Of a stretch of DNA of 13,007 bases, positions 1,708-13,007 are shown piece by piece. This stretch comes from a virus, in the UHGV virus genome UHGV-0203085; one strand, given 5' to 3'. The first letter of the stretch is position 1. Each line of letters opens with the position of its first letter. The translations under genes were made by a program, and so were the position numbers. The notes under the pieces were generated by a model. It made no database searches, was not told the origin of the DNA, and worked only from the letters and a program-made list of their open reading frames with translations.

Positions 1708-1744
1708 TAAGTGAATAGTAACCTATTATGTTGGGGGCGTGCAA
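1708..1744 (-). promoter_or_regulatory. promoter-like element D (minus orientation): TTGCAC, 18 nt, TACTAT, then conserved TTCACTTA
   Basis: Minus-strand reading cTTGCACgcccccaacataataggtTACTATtcactta. It has 3 mismatches to the 28-bp core shared by elements A and B, and its downstream 21 bp (cgtttcgataagtgaatagta, plus 1700-1720) matches the window-end copy C with one mismatch. It lies about 20-50 nt upstream of the ATG at 1689. Confidence 0.4.
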
Positions 1745-2039
1745 GAGAATAGTTACGATGCCGTTGTGATTCTTTCGTTTAATGGGGTAGCGAGCGAAAC
1801 GAAACGAACGTGGTGCCGAAGGCACCAAGAGTGAGTGAGTGAGCTTGCGGTTCTAACCTGCGGCAAATCAGTAACTTAGATATTTTGGCGGGAATTACAA
1901 TAGACTTTGGGCCTCCCAAACGCGCCAGCGAGCCTCACTCCACACGCTACACGTGCTCGTTTCGCCTGCCGCGCGCCGCGGTCGCTTGTTCATACTTCAC
2001 AAGCTCAGGTGGAGCTTAGCATATTTTTAGTGAAAAGTC

Positions 2040-2055
2040 AACTATTCGAATAGTT
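2040..2055. promoter_or_regulatory. perfect 16-bp palindrome AACTATTCGAATAGTT (putative operator)
   Basis: Exact inverted repeat in the divergent region between elements D and A. Its half-site ACTATTC is the same heptamer found at the -10 region of elements A, B, C and D, and GAATAGTT recurs at 1747-1754. Confidence 0.4.
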
Positions 2056-2107
2056 TATTCCAACATTTACAATTGAGCGGAATAACTGGAATACGTAAAC
2101 AAATAGT

Positions 2108-2143
2108 TTGCACACCCCAATATAATAGGGTACTATTCAGTTA
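2108..2143 (+). promoter_or_regulatory. promoter-like element A: TTGCAC, 17 nt, TACTAT, then conserved TCAGTTA
   Basis: The 28-bp core ccaatataatagggtactattcagttaa is identical to element B. -35-like TTGCAC at 2108-2113, -10-like TACTAT at 2131-2136; an embedded TATAAT lies in the spacer. It is followed by AGGAGG and the ATG at 2162. Confidence 0.45.
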
Positions 2144-2161
2144 ACTTAAACAGGAGGGTGT

Positions 2162-2897: not shown

Positions 2898-4756
2898 TAT
2901 TCCCCTTTCAGATAATCAGCAACACGTTTATCGAGTTCCGCCATCTGCTTAAGTGTCAGCGGATTCCCGAAACCATCTACAGATATTACGCGAAACTCTT
3001 CCGGCGATATACCGCTGTTACGGAAAATCTTACCTCGCACCGGGCCGAGTGCTTCATCCACGAACCATGCCGGTTGTTGTTCAAGGAACTCGTAGTAAGT
3101 GGTGTCCGCGCTTACCTGAGTACCGCCGTCCGCACCCTTAGCTGCGCGTTTCGCTCCTTTATCGAGGAAGTCGAACTCTGAACTGATCACAGGCGCGGTT
3201 GTTGAGCGGCAGTTATGTGCTATAATTCCATTAGCAAGATACCAGTTCTGTTCATTTTCGAGGTTATAAACATGCCCGCAAAAATCAGCTTCACTAAAGA
3301 CCAAATCGACAACATCATCAAGCTCTACACCGACGGCATCGGACCAGTTGAAATCGGAAAGATTATCGGCGTTTCGTGTAGTCCAGTCATACGCGTTCTC
3401 AGAGAGAACGGCGTTACCATTCGCGGAGGCAGCGACGCTATGTTCATCCGAATGGCTAAAGCTACTCCCGAGGAGCGCCTCGCTCTCTCCGCCGCGGCGC
3501 ATGAAGCTGTCCGAGGGAGAAAGGCCGACCATGCTGAACTGCTTCGCAGAGCCAAAGCCAGGGAGGGAGTCATCAACGCCGGCAGTCACTGGGAGTTCCT
3601 TGTCAATGATTTGCTTATTCAGTCCGGACTTGACTTTATCCCAGGAAAGGCGGTCGACAAGTACAATCTCGACTTCGCCGTCGGTACCGTCGCCGTGGAA
3701 GTCTTCGGGGGAGGTTGGGCTTGTACTGACCGCCGCCGGATTGACCGTTACATTAGCCGCACTAAACAAATCGGAGAACTTGGCTACAACGTTGTGTTCC
3801 TTATGCTTGAGAGAGAGCGCAGAGTCCTTAGCGCACACGAGCTTGTCACCTACATTGAGAAGGCCGGAAGCAACCCAACCACTGGCGGTCAATACCTGGT
3901 GGTTTGGGGTGATAGACAAGGTGCGACCGGACTTTGTAGAGACATAGACTATAGTGCCTTTGTACGCCCGTTTAAAAATGTTAGAAACAGGGCTACCGGT
4001 AGATACTACAGTGTCCCCAAGTAAACAATTAGGGTGGGCCGGAGGCATCGGCCCTTTACCAATTTCCCACGTCATCCCGTCCCTGGCTCTGCAAATCGTA
4101 CTGGTACGACTATCAAGCGTTGACACCCACTCGTATTTCTCGATGATGTCGTCGTTCTGGCGGTACGTCTCGTTGCGGGCCTCGTTGGATACGTGAGCCA
4201 GCGCGGTGCGGATTACGGTAGCTGCATTACGTTCAGAGATGTCCGCCAGTCCACCAGCGCCTACGACATTCTTAACAATCTGCCGTGTCGTCTGGCCTTG
4301 GACAAAGCCCATCTTAACGCCGGTTACCAGGCGCGATACTTCTGTTTCACCCCAGCCCGACATCAGCTTAGTGAAGTCAACCGGCTTGTCGCTTAATGAT
4401 AAGGGTTGAAACTCGGCAGCGGCCCATACCTGTTCCGCGGTAGGCGTAATAAACTCGGCGTTAACGTTGGTGGCCAGCGTTTTTACGTTCCACTCTGCCT
4501 CATAAGCCGCCAGTTCTTTAAGGTCTTCTGTCAGTTTTGTTTGCCAGTCACCCGTAAGTCCCGCCAGTGCTTCTTCGAGGTCGCGTAACAGCTTATTTAG
4601 CCGCGCGGTACTACGACCGTCGTCGCCGAATAACAGCACCTGCCGTTTGATTTCGTCCCGCATCTCCTTAAGGAACGGCGCGAGGTCTTTCACTTCACCG
4701 GATGCGGTGCGTTGCAGCCATATCTGGTGGCTGATTAGAGATGTAAGTAAGCTCAT
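2897..4756 (-). CDS. head morphogenesis protein (Phage Mu F / SPP1 gp7-like) interrupted by an intein
   Basis: Long minus ORF; best start is ATG 4754-4756 with AGGAGGG 3-4 nt upstream (track ORF begins at TTG 4813 with no RBS). The N-extein ends ...WVSTLDSRTSTICRARDGMTWEIGKGPMPPAHPN, which I recall as the Mu F signature preceding HPNCRC. The gene lies directly downstream of the portal gene, as expected by synteny. Confidence 0.8.
   Translation of the reverse strand: MSLLTSLISHQIWLQRTASGEVKDLAPFLKEMRDEIKRQVLLFGDDGRSTARLNKLLRDLEEALAGLTGDWQTKLTEDLKELAAYEAEWNVKTLATNVNAEFITPTAEQVWAAAEFQPLSLSDKPVDFTKLMSGWGETEVSRLVTGVKMGFVQGQTTRQIVKNVVGAGGLADISERNAATVIRTALAHVSNEARNETYRQNDDIIEKYEWVSTLDSRTSTICRARDGMTWEIGKGPMPPAHPNCLLGDTVVSTGSPVSNIFKRAYKGTIVYVSTKSGRTLSITPNHQVLTASGWVASGLLNVGDKLVCAKDSALSLKHKEHNVVAKFSDLFSAANVTVNPAAVSTSPTSPEDFHGDGTDGEVEIVLVDRLSWDKVKSGLNKQIIDKELPVTAGVDDSLPGFGSAKQFSMVGLSPSDSFMRRGGESEALLGSSFSHSDEHSVAASANGNAVLSENAYDWTTRNADNLSDFNWSDAVGVELDDVVDLVFSEADFCGHVYNLENEQNWYLANGIIAHNCRSTTAPVISSEFDFLDKGAKRAAKGADGGTQVSADTTYYEFLEQQPAWFVDEALGPVRGKIFRNSGISPEEFRVISVDGFGNPLTLKQMAELDKRVADYLKGE
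3212..4027 (-). mobile_element. intein, 272 codons (Cys1 ... His-Asn, +1 Cys)
   Basis: In-frame insertion beginning CLLGDTVVS (block A; Cys codon = plus 4025-4027), with TLSITPNHQVLT (block B, T-x-x-H) and GWVASGLLNVGDKLV in the N-terminal Hint part. The C-terminal Hint part is ADFCGHVYNLENEQNWYLANGIIAHN, followed by +1 Cys (plus 3209-3211). The central region is S/A/D/G-rich with no LAGLIDADG, HNH or GIY-YIG motifs. Confidence 0.75.
3272..4024 (+). CDS. antisense-nested ORF, 250 aa: HTH plus DUF559/Vsr-like (PD-(D/E)xK-type) putative homing endonuclease
   Basis: ATG 3272 with GAGG about 8 nt upstream (an in-frame ATG at 3215 gives the 269-aa track ORF). N-terminal HTH-like IGPVEIGKIIGVSCSPVIRVLRENGV. 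Central block WEFLVNDLLIQSGLDF...YNLDFAVGTVAVEVFGGGW...RRRIDRYISRTKQIGELGYNVVFL matches the DUF559/Vsr pattern (D-F ... hEhDG.W ... R ... GY.V) as I remember it. The ORF is bounded by antisense stops at 3203-3205 and 4022-4024, so it spans the intein to within 2 codons. Confidence 0.55.
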   Translation: MPAKISFTKDQIDNIIKLYTDGIGPVEIGKIIGVSCSPVIRVLRENGVTIRGGSDAMFIRMAKATPEERLALSAAAHEAVRGRKADHAELLRRAKAREGVINAGSHWEFLVNDLLIQSGLDFIPGKAVDKYNLDFAVGTVAVEVFGGGWACTDRRRIDRYISRTKQIGELGYNVVFLMLERERRVLSAHELVTYIEKAGSNPTTGGQYLVVWGDRQGATGLCRDIDYSAFVRPFKNVRNRATGRYYSVPK

Positions 4757-4800
4757 AAGCCCTCCTGTAGTATCGCCAGTGTAACGCATAAAAATAATAT

Positions 4801-4836
4801 TTGCAGACACCAATATAATAGGGTACTATTCAGTTA
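4801..4836 (+). promoter_or_regulatory. promoter-like element B: TTGCAG, 17 nt, TACTAT, then conserved TCAGTTA
   Basis: The 28-bp core (4809-4836) is identical to element A. It lies in the divergent intergenic region between the head morphogenesis start (4756, minus) and the + ORF at 4861. Confidence 0.45.
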
Positions 4837-5210: not shown

Positions 5211-6701
5211 TTGCTGCTGTTGGTCTTGTGGAGATTGTTCCTGTCTTGCTGTAGCAGGAATCTCCCCTGCCACCTGAGTGGCAGCACCTAACGGCAGCGG
5301 TGTATCCTCGATAGCGTTCTGAATATCCTCGTCAGTCCAGTCGGTTACTCCAGCTTTACGCAATGCCGCGTAGTAAGCGGTAGCCGGTAACAGGCCCGCG
5401 TTAATATCAGCCATCCACTGTGCGCGGTCCTGAGCGGTCATCGGTTGCAGGAAGAACTCCATGTTCAGCTTGAACTCAATTTCTGTGCCTTCACGCAACC
5501 CCAGCATAGCAGCCACCCAGCGCAACGCATCGGTATACGCCATGCTTACGTTACGTGCGATTGTTGCCATAACAGACGTATCGGCACCACGTTGCAGGCG
5601 GGCTGATTCAGCGGTTATTTGCTGTGTCGGGGTAATAAGCTGCGCCCCAATCTGGATCGCCTGATTCTCTTTATCCAGCATGTTCTGTTTGGCAAGGTTG
5701 TTCTCTCCTGCCTGAACCAGAAACGCATTGCCGCCGTAACCGATGTTATGACCTGAACGCGACCCCATGCGAACGCCGTGGGGGTTGGCTTCCGCCCACT
5801 GTTCCATGCTCATGTTCTCGCCCGGGGCGATGAACAGAGTGGGTTGACCTACAACGAAGCTGGACTCCTCATTGTCCGCGCTGTTGCGAAAATGCCCGAT
5901 ATTAAGCTCGGCCAACGGCAGCAAAGGCGCATCGTCAATGGTTGCATCGTTGTTGCTTGCCCCGATGAACGTGAACGGGATTTTGCCGCGTAACTGTTCG
6001 CCGAGTTCCGGGAATATCTCGATTACTTCGTCCTGAGCGCCACCTTCGGCATCGAAGCGGTAAATGCGCTGACGATAGCGATCTTCGATAATGTCAAGGA
6101 CGCGGTACTGTTCACCAAATTTTGTTTCGAACTCTGCGCCTGGTTCCGAATATTCCCATACCTCACGCAGCACGACCATTGTCACGCGGTTCACTGAACC
6201 GATACGGGTCAGGCGCCAGTTGATGATGTTCTCTGCGGTGTAAAACGCGATGACCGGGTTTAATAACCCCGCGTTCTGTTCTGCTGCCGTCGCTGCGGCT
6301 GTCTCCGGCGCATCCACCAGCAAGCCTCCACGCCCCACTGAGTCAATCTCCATCAGCGTATCCTGCGCGTGCTGCCACAGCCCGACACCAGAACCGTCTG
6401 CATTGCGTAACAGGTATTCCAGTTCAGGCGGGATAATCTGTTCAGGGTCTTTGCGCATCACCGACCCCACCATCCCCGCCAGGGTACGTTTAGTGAAGTT
6501 GTAGCAGATAGCGCCGTTTTCGTATTCTTCCTGGCGCTGTGCTGCGTAGACCGGGTCGGGTTCATTCTTCCCGACGTTGCGCAGGTAACGGATAAGGTCG
6601 CCTTCCAGAGCGTGGCGGACCTTCTGCCATTTATCGAAGTGATGCAGCCATTCCCGGTGTTTTGTCTTAACACCCTGATTCTGACCGTTCATAGTTAACA
6701 T
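5208..6701 (-). CDS. portal protein (putative), 497 aa
   Basis: ATG 6699-6701 with AAGAGGA 7 nt upstream; size and position immediately after the large terminase and before the Mu F-like gene fit the usual terS-terL-portal-MuF synteny. No motif-level confirmation is possible by eye. Confidence 0.65.
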   Translation of the reverse strand: MLTMNGQNQGVKTKHREWLHHFDKWQKVRHALEGDLIRYLRNVGKNEPDPVYAAQRQEEYENGAICYNFTKRTLAGMVGSVMRKDPEQIIPPELEYLLRNADGSGVGLWQHAQDTLMEIDSVGRGGLLVDAPETAAATAAEQNAGLLNPVIAFYTAENIINWRLTRIGSVNRVTMVVLREVWEYSEPGAEFETKFGEQYRVLDIIEDRYRQRIYRFDAEGGAQDEVIEIFPELGEQLRGKIPFTFIGASNNDATIDDAPLLPLAELNIGHFRNSADNEESSFVVGQPTLFIAPGENMSMEQWAEANPHGVRMGSRSGHNIGYGGNAFLVQAGENNLAKQNMLDKENQAIQIGAQLITPTQQITAESARLQRGADTSVMATIARNVSMAYTDALRWVAAMLGLREGTEIEFKLNMEFFLQPMTAQDRAQWMADINAGLLPATAYYAALRKAGVTDWTDEDIQNAIEDTPLPLGAATQVAGEIPATARQEQSPQDQQQQ

Positions 6702-6713
6702 TGAATAATCCTC

Positions 6714-7964
6714 TTAAAGTGCGAAAGTCACCGGGATGTTGATTACTGGTTTAACCACCGGCATCTCATAAACTACAGGATAGCCGAGAGCATCCGCCAT
6801 ATGGTCGATGATGCCGTCTTTAGCTGGCTCTCCGTTATCGTCGTATGCCTGCTGCTCCAGCGTCTTCGCTATCTCAGGGCATAAGTGGTCGTTAACCCAC
6901 AGCTTACCTTTTTCCAGTGCGGTATTCACGGCTAAAACACGGTCTTTAACCGGAGGGTTGGCGGATTTAGCGCGAACATCGAACCCGGCCTGCTGGAGTA
7001 ATGCAATATCAGAGATTGACGCTGAGTTGGTTTTGCGGTTCTTGCCGCTGGCGTCAGGGTAGACGACAATACGGTGTCCTTGCGACTTCCACTTCTCGTT
7101 AATTACACGCACGGTGTCCGGCGTATCGAACAGGCCTTTCAGTTCTGCTACCGCGTGCCAGCCGTCTTTACGTTGCACATACACGGCGCTTGCGTTCTTC
7201 GTAACGTTGAAGTCCTGCCCGATGTACAGTGTGTCACCAGGTTGAATTGTCTCTTTGCTGCGGTGCTTACGTCGGTCATAGGCGTAATACACGCTGCCGG
7301 ATGTCAGGTTGACGAACTCACCATTAAGATACGCGTTAATCAGTTGCGCCGGGTAAGTCTCGGTCAGTGAGCTGATGTAATCCTGCGGCAGGAATCGCGC
7401 ATTCTCGTGTGTGGAAGCCTGCACCATCGAGTAACTCGGCGTCGGATTCTCTTTGAACTTGGCGTAGACGAACTTGAACCCTTCCGGCGTCGTGGTGACA
7501 GAGATGTGGTTAATTACACCTGGTATAACCAGACGCATACGGGCTACGATTTTGTTCCACGCCAGCTCAGCTTTCTCGCGGCTCAATACGTCCAGCTCAT
7601 CCACGACCGCAGCCGCGATTTTGAAGCCGACTATCGAGCCGGGGTTATCCATCGAGCGGCAGATAACAGTTCCGAGCACCGTCTTACCGCGAGTAACCAC
7701 GACTTCTTTGTCGCCGGATTTAACCAGCACATCAAGGCCGAGGAGGTTAGCCGCTTCCTCGAATGTAGGGTAGAAGATGTCGCGGATAGCCGGGTATGTC
7801 GGACCGAAGTAGCCCAGGCGCGTACCTGGGTGCTTGAGTATAAACGTAAGCAGGTCCAGGCAGCCAACAAATGTCTTACCACTACCGAAGCCCCCGACAT
7901 AGGCCTTGTATTTGTTATCGCAATTCAGGAACAGTGCCTGTGGTGCGGATAGCTGAATACTCAT
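6714..7964 (-). CDS. terL: terminase large subunit, 416 aa
   Basis: Walker A ATPase motif YVGGFGSGKT near the N-terminus (residues about 23-32); ATG 7962-7964 overlaps the stop of the upstream gene (ATGA); followed by the portal gene. Confidence 0.85.
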   Translation of the reverse strand: MSIQLSAPQALFLNCDNKYKAYVGGFGSGKTFVGCLDLLTFILKHPGTRLGYFGPTYPAIRDIFYPTFEEAANLLGLDVLVKSGDKEVVVTRGKTVLGTVICRSMDNPGSIVGFKIAAAVVDELDVLSREKAELAWNKIVARMRLVIPGVINHISVTTTPEGFKFVYAKFKENPTPSYSMVQASTHENARFLPQDYISSLTETYPAQLINAYLNGEFVNLTSGSVYYAYDRRKHRSKETIQPGDTLYIGQDFNVTKNASAVYVQRKDGWHAVAELKGLFDTPDTVRVINEKWKSQGHRIVVYPDASGKNRKTNSASISDIALLQQAGFDVRAKSANPPVKDRVLAVNTALEKGKLWVNDHLCPEIAKTLEQQAYDDNGEPAKDGIIDHMADALGYPVVYEMPVVKPVINIPVTFAL

Positions 7965-8725: not shown

Positions 8726-8905
8726 TCATTTTAAGTATCTCAACAGGGCATCAGCGATACCCGATGTTACCAGGCCAAAAAACATAGGCCACCAGATGTA
8801 TCTGGGTAGATTGGTAAATGTTTCTGGCTTAGACCAGAAAGCCATTAAAAACGCGAACCAAAACACCATATAACTAATGTTGCTAAGTAATTCTAAAATA
8901 CTCAT
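8726..8905 (-). CDS. small hydrophobic membrane protein, 59 aa (not in track)
   Basis: ATG 8903-8905 overlaps the TGA of the upstream gene (ATGA); AGAGGAGA 7 nt upstream; translation MSILELLSNISYMVFWFAFLMAFWSKPETFTNLPRYIWWPMFFGLVTSGIADALLRYLK has two hydrophobic segments. Confidence 0.4.
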   Translation of the reverse strand: MSILELLSNISYMVFWFAFLMAFWSKPETFTNLPRYIWWPMFFGLVTSGIADALLRYLK

Positions 8906-9138
8906 TCCCCGCTCTCCTCTTTAGCAATGCGTTGCTCAGTTTTAGTGATACCCCGGCGCGTGAATAACACCGGGCTTGTTTTAACGTGCGTCATCAGACG
9001 GTTGTTATAAATTACATGACGCTCGCAATCAACGTCTTTGCTGTACTTGGCAATCGTCATTTCGTTGATGCCGGTTTGTCTGCATGTCTCCGCCATCGTG
9101 CCATATTCTTTTATCAGGTTCGGAATGCTGGTAATCAT
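8902..9138 (-). CDS. small HTH DNA-binding protein (putative regulator), about 78 aa
   Basis: ATG 9136-9138 overlaps the TGA of the upstream 56-aa ORF (track ORF starts at GTG 9162); helix-turn-helix-like segment MAETCRQTGINEMTIAKYSK. Confidence 0.5.
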   Translation of the reverse strand: MITSIPNLIKEYGTMAETCRQTGINEMTIAKYSKDVDCERHVIYNNRLMTHVKTSPVLFTRRGITKTEQRIAKEESGE

Positions 9139-9305
9139 CCTAAGAAATTCCTCGTTGTCCACATCGCATTAGGATATTTGCTATCGCGGTCCTGCACTAC
9201 GGCAATCATGTTACCGCGTTGCACCAGGCAGAAGTGCCGCTGTTGCTCGCCGTTATAGCGACGCCAGATTGCTTCTTCGATTGCTGCATTGATGTCACTA
9301 AACAT
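9135..9305 (-). CDS. hypothetical small protein, 56 aa (not in track)
   Basis: ATG 9303-9305 with GGGG 5 nt upstream; translation MFSDINAAIEEAIWRRYNGEQQRHFCLVQRGNMIAVVQDRDSKYPNAMWTTRNFLG; stop coupled to the next ATG. Confidence 0.35.
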   Translation of the reverse strand: MFSDINAAIEEAIWRRYNGEQQRHFCLVQRGNMIAVVQDRDSKYPNAMWTTRNFLG

Positions 9306-12966: not shown

Positions 12967-12990
12967 CTTCTGTCTCTCCTCTCGTTTCGA

Positions 12991-13007
12991 TAACTGAATA
13001 GTAGTCT
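12991..13007 (-). promoter_or_regulatory. promoter-like element C (minus orientation), truncated by the window edge
   Basis: Minus strand reads ...agacTACTATTCAGTTAtcgaaacg; the 13-bp core TACTATTCAGTTA is identical to elements A and B, and the 21 bp at plus 12983-13003 match element D (1700-1720) with one mismatch. The -35 region would lie beyond position 13007. Confidence 0.3.

Follow-up and report, generated by a model that had tools for sequence, protein, structure and literature searches.

A palindrome at the edge of a conserved TATTC/GAATA box array upstream of a predicted late promoter in Guernseyvirinae phages

What is the role of a perfect 16-bp palindrome that lies between promoter-like elements pointing in opposite directions? 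This question is raised by the window analyzed here, viz., the whole 13,007-bp stretch of viral DNA, which is approximately 90% identical to the E. coli phages of the genus Kagunavirus (Guernseyvirinae) and whose + strand has its counterpart in the minus strand of phage Schulenburg (MK931438.1). An earlier note on this DNA had read the palindrome as a putative operator, at which a single dimeric regulator would control both the divergent early-like and moron promoters. The anatomy on which that reading was built is exactly as described: the palindrome is a perfect 8+8 dyad, its end lies 52 bp before the -35 of promoter-like element A and its start 297 bp after that of element D, and two further half-sites, GAATAGTT at 1747-1754 and AATAGTT at 2102-2108, are both present.

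2040..2055, no strand assigned: palindrome AACTATTCGAATAGTT, made up of box 4 (GAATA, 2048-2052) and box 5 (TATTC, 2043-2047) of the array described below
2108-2143: promoter-like element A
4801-4833: promoter-like element B
12980-13007 and 1-19: promoter-like element C
1708-1743: promoter-like element D

Taken alone, a 16-bp palindrome is not significant, because a perfect palindrome of at least this length also turned up when the window was shuffled with its dinucleotides preserved, in 106 of 500 trials (21%). Its sequence is nevertheless more than a chance occurrence, since it is conserved: 29 of 32 homologous loci from IMG/VR have it in exact form. A scan of the window and two complete relatives for the full palindrome showed it to be unique, with no other copy at up to three mismatches. 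Within Kagunavirus, the entire 100-nt region is about equally conserved, so that the palindrome cannot be told apart from its flanks. It is altered in five of 38 distinct Kagunavirus upstream sequences, each time on one side only, and no compensatory change was found among the relatives' variants. In the sister genera Jerseyvirus and Cornellvirus the palindromic symmetry is lost, while the neighboring TATTC boxes are retained; the proximal half of the palindrome is confined to Kagunavirus, its place being taken in the other two genera by an A-tract (CAAAAAG/AAAAAG). The one-sided variants, together with the lack of symmetry in Jerseyvirus and Cornellvirus, argue that the dyad itself is not under long-term selection. 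That the palindrome might itself act as a promoter, with AACTAT serving as a -10 on either strand, was considered and rejected, as there is no usable -35 or TGn element at the right spacing.

The unit that is conserved across genera is, but for one box, an array of five short boxes packed into about 55 bp, with the palindrome supplying two of them.

2043..2093, minus strand: five-box TATTC/GAATA array, supported by shuffles and a three-genus alignment

Read on the + strand, the boxes are TATTC (2043-47), GAATA (2048-52), TATTCC (2056-61), GGAATA (2079-84), and GGAATA (2088-93). On the minus strand, the window thus reads TATTCC-agt-TATTCC-N17-GGAATA-aac-TATTC-GAATAG-TTGACT, for which the Jerseyvirus counterpart is TATTCC-agt-TATTCC-N17-GGAATA-ctt-TATTC-AAAAAG-TAGACT and that of Cornellvirus, which has more TATTC words inside the promoter spacer, is TATTCC-aat-TATTCC-N16-GGAATA-aat-TATTC-CAAAAG-TGGACT. 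Four boxes are invariant in the three genera, including box 4 of the palindrome (GAATA on the + strand, 2048-2052); what persists is a dyad, GGAATA-N3-TATTC, and a distal direct pair. Identity across the three genera extends to 23 of 23 shared-box positions versus 9 of 29 positions between the boxes (Fisher P = 8e-8, a value inflated because the boxes were defined after the alignments were seen). None of 100 shuffles, whether made from the window or from two genomes, attained a density of five words per 60 nt; the maximum was 3-4 and the mean 2.0-2.4.

A second cluster of the same boxes, also conserved in the three genera, lies outside the window between the o-spanin and scaffold genes, where GGAATATTCTGGAATAGTTGCC...TGGAATAATTTATTCTTGACA is followed by a conserved CCGGGnGGCCCGG hairpin.

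Schulenburg 7005-7075, with counterparts at ~30763 in PV845598.1, ~6463 in L108 (Jerseyvirus) and ~26575 in L107: second box cluster

In Schulenburg, no site in the whole genome has denser boxes than the array and this cluster, which also rank among the densest in the genomes of GZMU_E2010, Ent2 (Jerseyvirus), and SP-031 (Cornellvirus); the array by itself is one of the top two sites in all four. No recognizable -10 was found downstream of the second cluster. We regarded as fortuitous a further TATTC-rich spot at ~11559 of the window, which falls within coding sequence and is loosely spaced.

The array abuts a leftward promoter, P_rep, that we predict on the minus strand.

2013..2041, minus strand: P_rep, a predicted sigma-70 extended -10 promoter, recognized from its sequence and conserved architecture

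Here, the -35 TTGACT (2041..2036) is separated by a 17-nt spacer from the -10 TAAGCT (2018..2013), which is preceded by TGc (2021..2019). This combination of TGn with TAnnnT, and a -35-like hexamer 17 nt upstream, is that of sigma-70 extended -10 promoters. Only three of the six -10 positions match the consensus, among them the critical T-12, A-11, and T-7, and a simple promoter scan missed P_rep for this reason. Homologous promoters read TAGACT-17-TGtTACGCT in Jerseyvirus, TGGACT-17-TGaTAACCT in Cornellvirus, and TTGACT-17-TGaTAAGCT in a more distant group; hence, the hexamer positions, the spacing, and the TGn are kept across the groups though the flanks have diverged. The palindrome meets this promoter directly, its bases 2040-2041 being the first two of the -35 (a 2-bp overlap). 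From the position of the -10 alone, the start is predicted at ~2006/2005. A start at G2006 would place the palindrome at -34 to -49, with its center (2047/2048) at -41.5, and the remaining boxes at about -50/-55, -73/-78, and -82/-87.

The earlier note had instead located the palindrome relative to elements A and D, of which promoter A reads in the opposite direction to P_rep.

2108..2161, + strand: promoter A with leader and RBS for an 81-aa ORF (2162-2407), in a variable cassette outside the conserved block

Promoter A consists of TTGCAC (2108-2113), a 17-nt spacer, and TACTAT (2131-2136). Where present, it drives different genes in different phages, and some relatives have nothing there; the product of the 81-aa ORF (2162-2407) has no Pfam or PHROG match, and the gene at this position in Schulenburg is annotated as a sliding clamp. 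A tie to promoter A finds no support on comparison: eight relatives have neither this promoter nor the gene behind it, yet retain the block 2040-2093, which there runs directly into the Hoc terminator. This survival of the block where A is absent indicates that the palindrome belongs with P_rep. In the relatives, it lies between a Hoc-like gene and the spanin/scaffold/capsid operon.

Immediately after the P_rep -10 begins a structured leader RNA.

1896..2006, minus strand: structured leader RNA, recognized by covariation and covariance-model matches, belonging to no Rfam family
Schulenburg 6315-6424 and 37913-38023; L108 (Jerseyvirus) 5789-5885: copies of the leader in relatives

This RNA of ~110 nt is built from a hairpin (H1), a closing helix (P1), and two inner helices (P2 and P3); its internal loops GGAGCG and GAGUGUAG are conserved. 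We scored a hand-drawn H1/P1/P2/P3 model on 17 Kagunavirus sequences and found 90.8% of the cells to be paired, versus 30-38% with the 3' partners slid by 1-3 columns. The covariation score was 0.224, against 0.120 in shuffles (0 of 500 reaching 0.224). Two pairs display three Watson-Crick types each (CG/UA/AU and AU/UA/GC), and the co-varying arms include GGAC/GUCC, GUGC/GCAC, CACG/CGUG, GUGCC/GGCAC, and CGGAC/GUCCG. The 30 G.U cells modestly favor the minus sense, with 90.8% paired as opposed to 85.6% on the opposite strand. As the MFE z-score is only -0.49, folding energy is uninformative, and the case for the structure is one of covariation and not of energy. Covariance-model matches are seen twice per Kagunavirus genome, once in the window, once in the metagenome contig OIHY01001419.1, and once in the Jerseyvirus Ent2; the search of Cornellvirus recovered no leader copy, the leader having diverged there. 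An Rfam search returned no family for the leader, only two chance-level matches (E = 0.57 and 0.72), both at the Hoc terminator. Two other identities were rejected: no tRNA was found in the GC-rich region, and a small minus-strand ORF across the repeat (MNKRPRR...) is at odds with copies that differ by 1-nt indels within the covarying hairpins. In the Schulenburg record, the small hypothetical ORFs 008, 057, and 058, which are annotated over the leader and its downstream flank, are probably spurious.

Hairpins follow both Kagunavirus leader copies, ahead of the next genes.

Schulenburg 6470-6515; L045 ~1290-1330: hairpin upstream of the i-spanin gene
1811..1827, minus strand: hairpin resembling a terminator (GGUGCC-UUCG-GGCACC, U-rich tail), situated between leader RNA and promoter D

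At the Hoc locus, the hairpin is a co-varying GCCCCGC/GCGGGGC stem, 11 nt before the i-spanin RBS, with the variants GCCCCGC/GCGGGGC, GCCCGGC/GCCGGGC, and GCCCUGC/GCAGGGC between lineages. Its function within the late leader may be termination, processing, or stabilization. At the early locus, the hairpin is the GGUGCC-UUCG-GGCACC stem, which precedes promoter D. A (GAGT)n microsatellite (1829-1843), also situated between leader and promoter D, differs among relatives in its number of repeats, being longer in L007 and shorter in Schulenburg.

Based on these observations, we propose that the palindrome is the promoter-proximal end of a TATTC/GAATA regulatory array upstream of the late promoter P_rep, a reading to which we assign a probability of about one half. 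In an intact Kagunavirus genome, P_rep lies between the Hoc-like and i-spanin genes and would transcribe the ~110-nt structured leader, followed by the spanin-scaffold-capsid-tail operon. A box-binding protein, probably encoded by the phage, would occupy the array and thereby set initiation at the late promoter. The perfect dyad of Kagunavirus arises from the additional inverted box that adjoins the -35, and from it a dimer could touch RNA polymerase. As the block is conserved, non-coding, promoter-proximal, and rich in one short motif, an operator-like, protein-binding role is plausible, and this part of the earlier interpretation stands; its other part, the shared control of the early-like and moron promoters through elements A-D, finds no support. 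The palindrome is thus most likely a putative binding site for a regulator of P_rep. No simple dimer fits the array, because the box orientations and spacings are mixed (overlapping, 0, 3, and 17 nt).

The rival that fares best, while still unlikely in our estimate, dispenses with a dedicated regulator: an AT-rich UP-element or region of curved DNA would aid the alpha subunits of RNA polymerase or a host nucleoid protein at a strong promoter, with the symmetry of the palindrome in Kagunavirus being accidental. UP elements are A/T-rich tracts at -38 to -59 that resemble AAAAAARNR, the form of the proximal subsite in E. coli promoters, or AWWWWWTTTTT. The A-tract of Jerseyvirus and Cornellvirus (CAAAAAG/AAAAAG) resembles the proximal subsite; Kagunavirus has GAATAG at this place. 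The insignificance of the palindrome on its own and the failure of its symmetry to be conserved across genera point in the same direction. However, it is specific words, TATTCC and GGAATA, that occupy the conserved positions, with the AT-rich spacers between them diverging freely, and the boxes recur in the second cluster where no -10 can be recognized.

As to its topology, the window was found to be a closed circle of 13,007 bp, one arc of a ~44-kb Kagunavirus genome. This conclusion follows from promoter C, which is split over the window ends, with the -10 region CTGAATAGTA at 12994-13003 and the -35 GTGCAA at 14-19, and from the wrapped interval 12848->199, whose 358 nt equal the 358 nt of PV845598.1, the closest complete genome; joined, the halves of promoter C match the intact promoter of the relatives. 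Relative to complete genomes, the arc starts at promoter D and takes in small genes, lysis genes, terS, terL, and the genes for the portal, a Mu-F-like head morphogenesis protein, and a Hoc-like protein. The gene for the Mu-F-like protein (2900-4813, minus strand, 638 aa) carries an intein splicing domain (PF14890, 38.6 bits, exceeding the cut-off), which corresponds to a stretch of ~830 bp that is missing from its Schulenburg homolog.

1898..2041, no strand assigned: ~145-nt direct repeat (P_rep core and leader), recognized by comparison with complete relatives

This repeat exists in two copies, 31 kb apart, in Schulenburg and PV845598.1, and in a single copy in the window. In the complete genomes, the copy beside the Hoc-like gene has the palindrome and that in the early divergent region is without it: the early-locus repeat ends in ...AAAAGTCAA followed by C or T, with different sequence afterwards, placing the homology break at 2041/2042. 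The copy of the window is chimeric, with its left part and middle of the early-locus type and its right end of the Hoc-locus type, and the crossover maps inside CCGCGGTCGCTTGTTCATACTTCACAAGCTCAGG (CCGCGG...CTCAGG, ~1975-2009). All 32 palindrome-bearing loci recovered from IMG/VR and GenBank have the beginning of the spanin/late operon, and never promoter D, on their left side; the window alone among the compared palindrome-bearing sequences has a left flank and a repeat middle that are both of the early-locus type. No GenBank phage record covers at least 80% of 1690-2165, the junction is absent from the IMG/VR contigs and GTDB genomes, and the wrap-around sequence is absent from IMG/VR; three proteins of the window have no record. 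The same junction is present in one independent metagenome contig, OIHY01001419.1, which is 80-90% identical to the window. The junction joining D to A could have arisen in assembly, through collapse on the repeat, or be that of a real sub-genomic recombinant with terminase and portal genes. As the window is a circle closed on the repeat, the D-A pairing is not native; the 'divergent control region' of the earlier note is the junction of the circle and is absent from every isolate genome searched.

1708..1754, minus strand: promoter D, with its -35 at 1743..1738, -10 TACTAT at 1720..1715, and the upstream half-site AACTATTC at 1754..1747

Promoter D is part of the early divergent locus in complete genomes. 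The proposal that one dimeric regulator binds both the palindrome and the ACTATTC in the -10 regions of A-D, coordinating early-like and moron promoters, has several patterns in its favor. The heptamer is indeed in the -10 region of all four promoter-like elements, and the window holds seven copies of it (1713-, 1747-, 2041+, 2048-, 2132+, 4825+, and 12996-) versus 1.46 expected, a count that none of 200 shuffles reached. Further, A-D contain an internal dyad, AATAG-N4-CTATT, and a similar module, TATAATAGCGAACTATTCAC, lies upstream of a Cro-like gene in Schulenburg, in an intergenic region where CTATTC occurs twice. Nevertheless, we consider this proposal improbable. Elements A-D have the -10 region TACTATTC, their TACTAT being preceded at 17 nt by TTGCAC, and thus fit ordinary host sigma-70 promoters (TTGCAC-17-TACTAT); the heptamer needs no second explanation, because TACTAT is the sigma-70 -10 hexamer, to which TC is added. 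As A-D are a single repeated promoter family, their four heptamers amount to one evolutionary event. Moreover, promoter A is missing from the eight palindrome-keeping relatives, and promoter D is adjacent to the palindrome in the chimeric circle only. The half-site before D is not constant, relatives having AACTAATC, AACTATTA, or AACTGCTC there or lacking it, and promoters B and C are without such an upstream half-site. Cornellvirus has the box array without an A-type promoter at up to nine mismatches. Finally, a dimer would need to bind a lone half-site in A-D. Hence, the action of one regulator on the A-D -10 regions as well finds no support in the comparative data.

In the published passages on Kagunavirus repeats, seven elements of the A-D type were detected by PHIRE, with the consensus tgAATAGTa-ccTATTat-T, and assigned to a phage-encoded RNA polymerase (PMC9825357); no RNA polymerase gene is listed in the four annotated genomes that we examined. 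The promoter and terminator passages of PMC9825357 and PMC7203180 mention neither the palindrome nor the box array nor P_rep. More generally, our search of the Guernseyvirinae transcription literature found PHIRE and ARNold predictions in genome reports only, and no transcriptome or binding data.

As to the protein that would bind the boxes, the HTH protein put forward in the earlier note (8902-9162) is NinH-like at 25.8 bits, below the Pfam cut-off of 29.8, and falls in a PHROG of unknown function. Other candidates in the relatives are Cro-like and HTH_17 genes. We rejected the Cro-like protein as the box binder, as the CTATTC pair upstream of its gene in Schulenburg is not kept in Jerseyvirus and Cornellvirus and leaves it without support. 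Among the host factors, none of the sites of CRP, FNR, Fis, IHF, ArgR, RcsB, DnaA, OmpR, and ArcA fits both sequence and spacing on inspection against their consensuses.

Weakest, and in our view very improbable, is the idea that the boxes serve DNA metabolism as origin iterons or packaging/recombination sites, with the palindrome marking where the recombining repeat ends: a 17-nt AT-rich spacer framed by both direct and inverted repeats, two clusters flanking the spanin genes, the homology break of the ~145-nt repeat at 2041/2042, and the recombinant appearance of the window and one other contig across the repeat would suit it, but the crossover at ~1975-2009 lies upstream of the palindrome, which rules out the palindrome as the crossover site, the repeat stops at the -35 just as a duplication of promoter and leader would, and the replication genes and the pac-bearing terS are elsewhere.

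A regulatory array upstream of P_rep remains the reading that we prefer, and it can be extended, more speculatively, to the locus as a whole. The array, P_rep, and the leader could constitute an undescribed late-transcription switch of the Guernseyvirinae, a possibility to which we give a low probability. In such a switch, a box-binding phage protein would gate initiation, and the leader, which in Kagunavirus is duplicated and heads both long rightward operons, would alter elongation, e.g., through put- or Q-like read-through of the hairpins that follow. The two leader copies would also recombine to yield 13-kb sub-genomic circles with packaging genes. The leader on its own may act in elongation control (put- or Q/qut-like) or in mRNA stability.

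As a class, the palindrome is most likely an ordinary element, a candidate site at which a regulator would bind ahead of a phage promoter; greater novelty lies in the structured leader RNA and the conserved box arrays. The Guernseyvirinae (Kagunavirus, Jerseyvirus, and Cornellvirus) are among the most often isolated phages of E. coli and Salmonella, and in their published annotations the A-D repeats appear as 'phage RNA polymerase promoters' while small ORFs cover the structured leader. If our reading is true, it would provide a concrete late promoter, a short DNA motif as bait for the regulator, and an RNA element that annotations lack. A warning comes with it, in that the apparent divergent control region of the window is a junction missing from complete genomes.

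The proposed arrangement invites comparison with several known systems. Among the activator sites of middle and late phage promoters, those of Mu Mor/C are dyads centered near -43.5, and class II CRP/FNR-type sites are centered at -41.5. Like these, the palindrome is a dyad that adjoins or overlaps the -35 of a predicted sigma-70 late promoter, with its center at ~-41.5 relative to the predicted start. In contrast to them, its sequence matches no such consensus and the dyad is genus-specific; moreover, with a good -35 and an extended -10, the Kagunavirus P_rep may not need an activator. The palindrome is also comparable in length to the OR/OL operators of lambda, 434, and P22 (14-17 bp, bound by Cro/CI dimers) and, like them, lies in a promoter region; as in the lambdoid phages, small HTH proteins are encoded and the relatives have a Cro-like gene. 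However, it is a single copy and not a tandem set, it overlaps the -35 by only 2 bp, and its symmetry is not conserved beyond the genus. Unlike in the lambdoid phages, there is no adjacent cognate repressor gene, and the Kagunavirus-type phages are virulent. With the PHIRE repeats, i.e., elements A-D, the palindrome shares the ACTATTC word.

For the leader, the nearest parallels are lambda PR'-qut/6S RNA with Q and the HK022 put RNAs, which are leader elements acting on the elongating polymerase. The Kagunavirus leader has no sequence similarity to lambda qut or HK022 put and is a multi-helix domain rather than two stem-loops, and no Q-like gene was identified. It is present as two paralogous copies per genome, each heading a rightward operon, and the order of parts is the same as in the lambda PR'-qut and HK022 put systems: a conserved promoter, an immediate structured leader, hairpins, and then a long operon.
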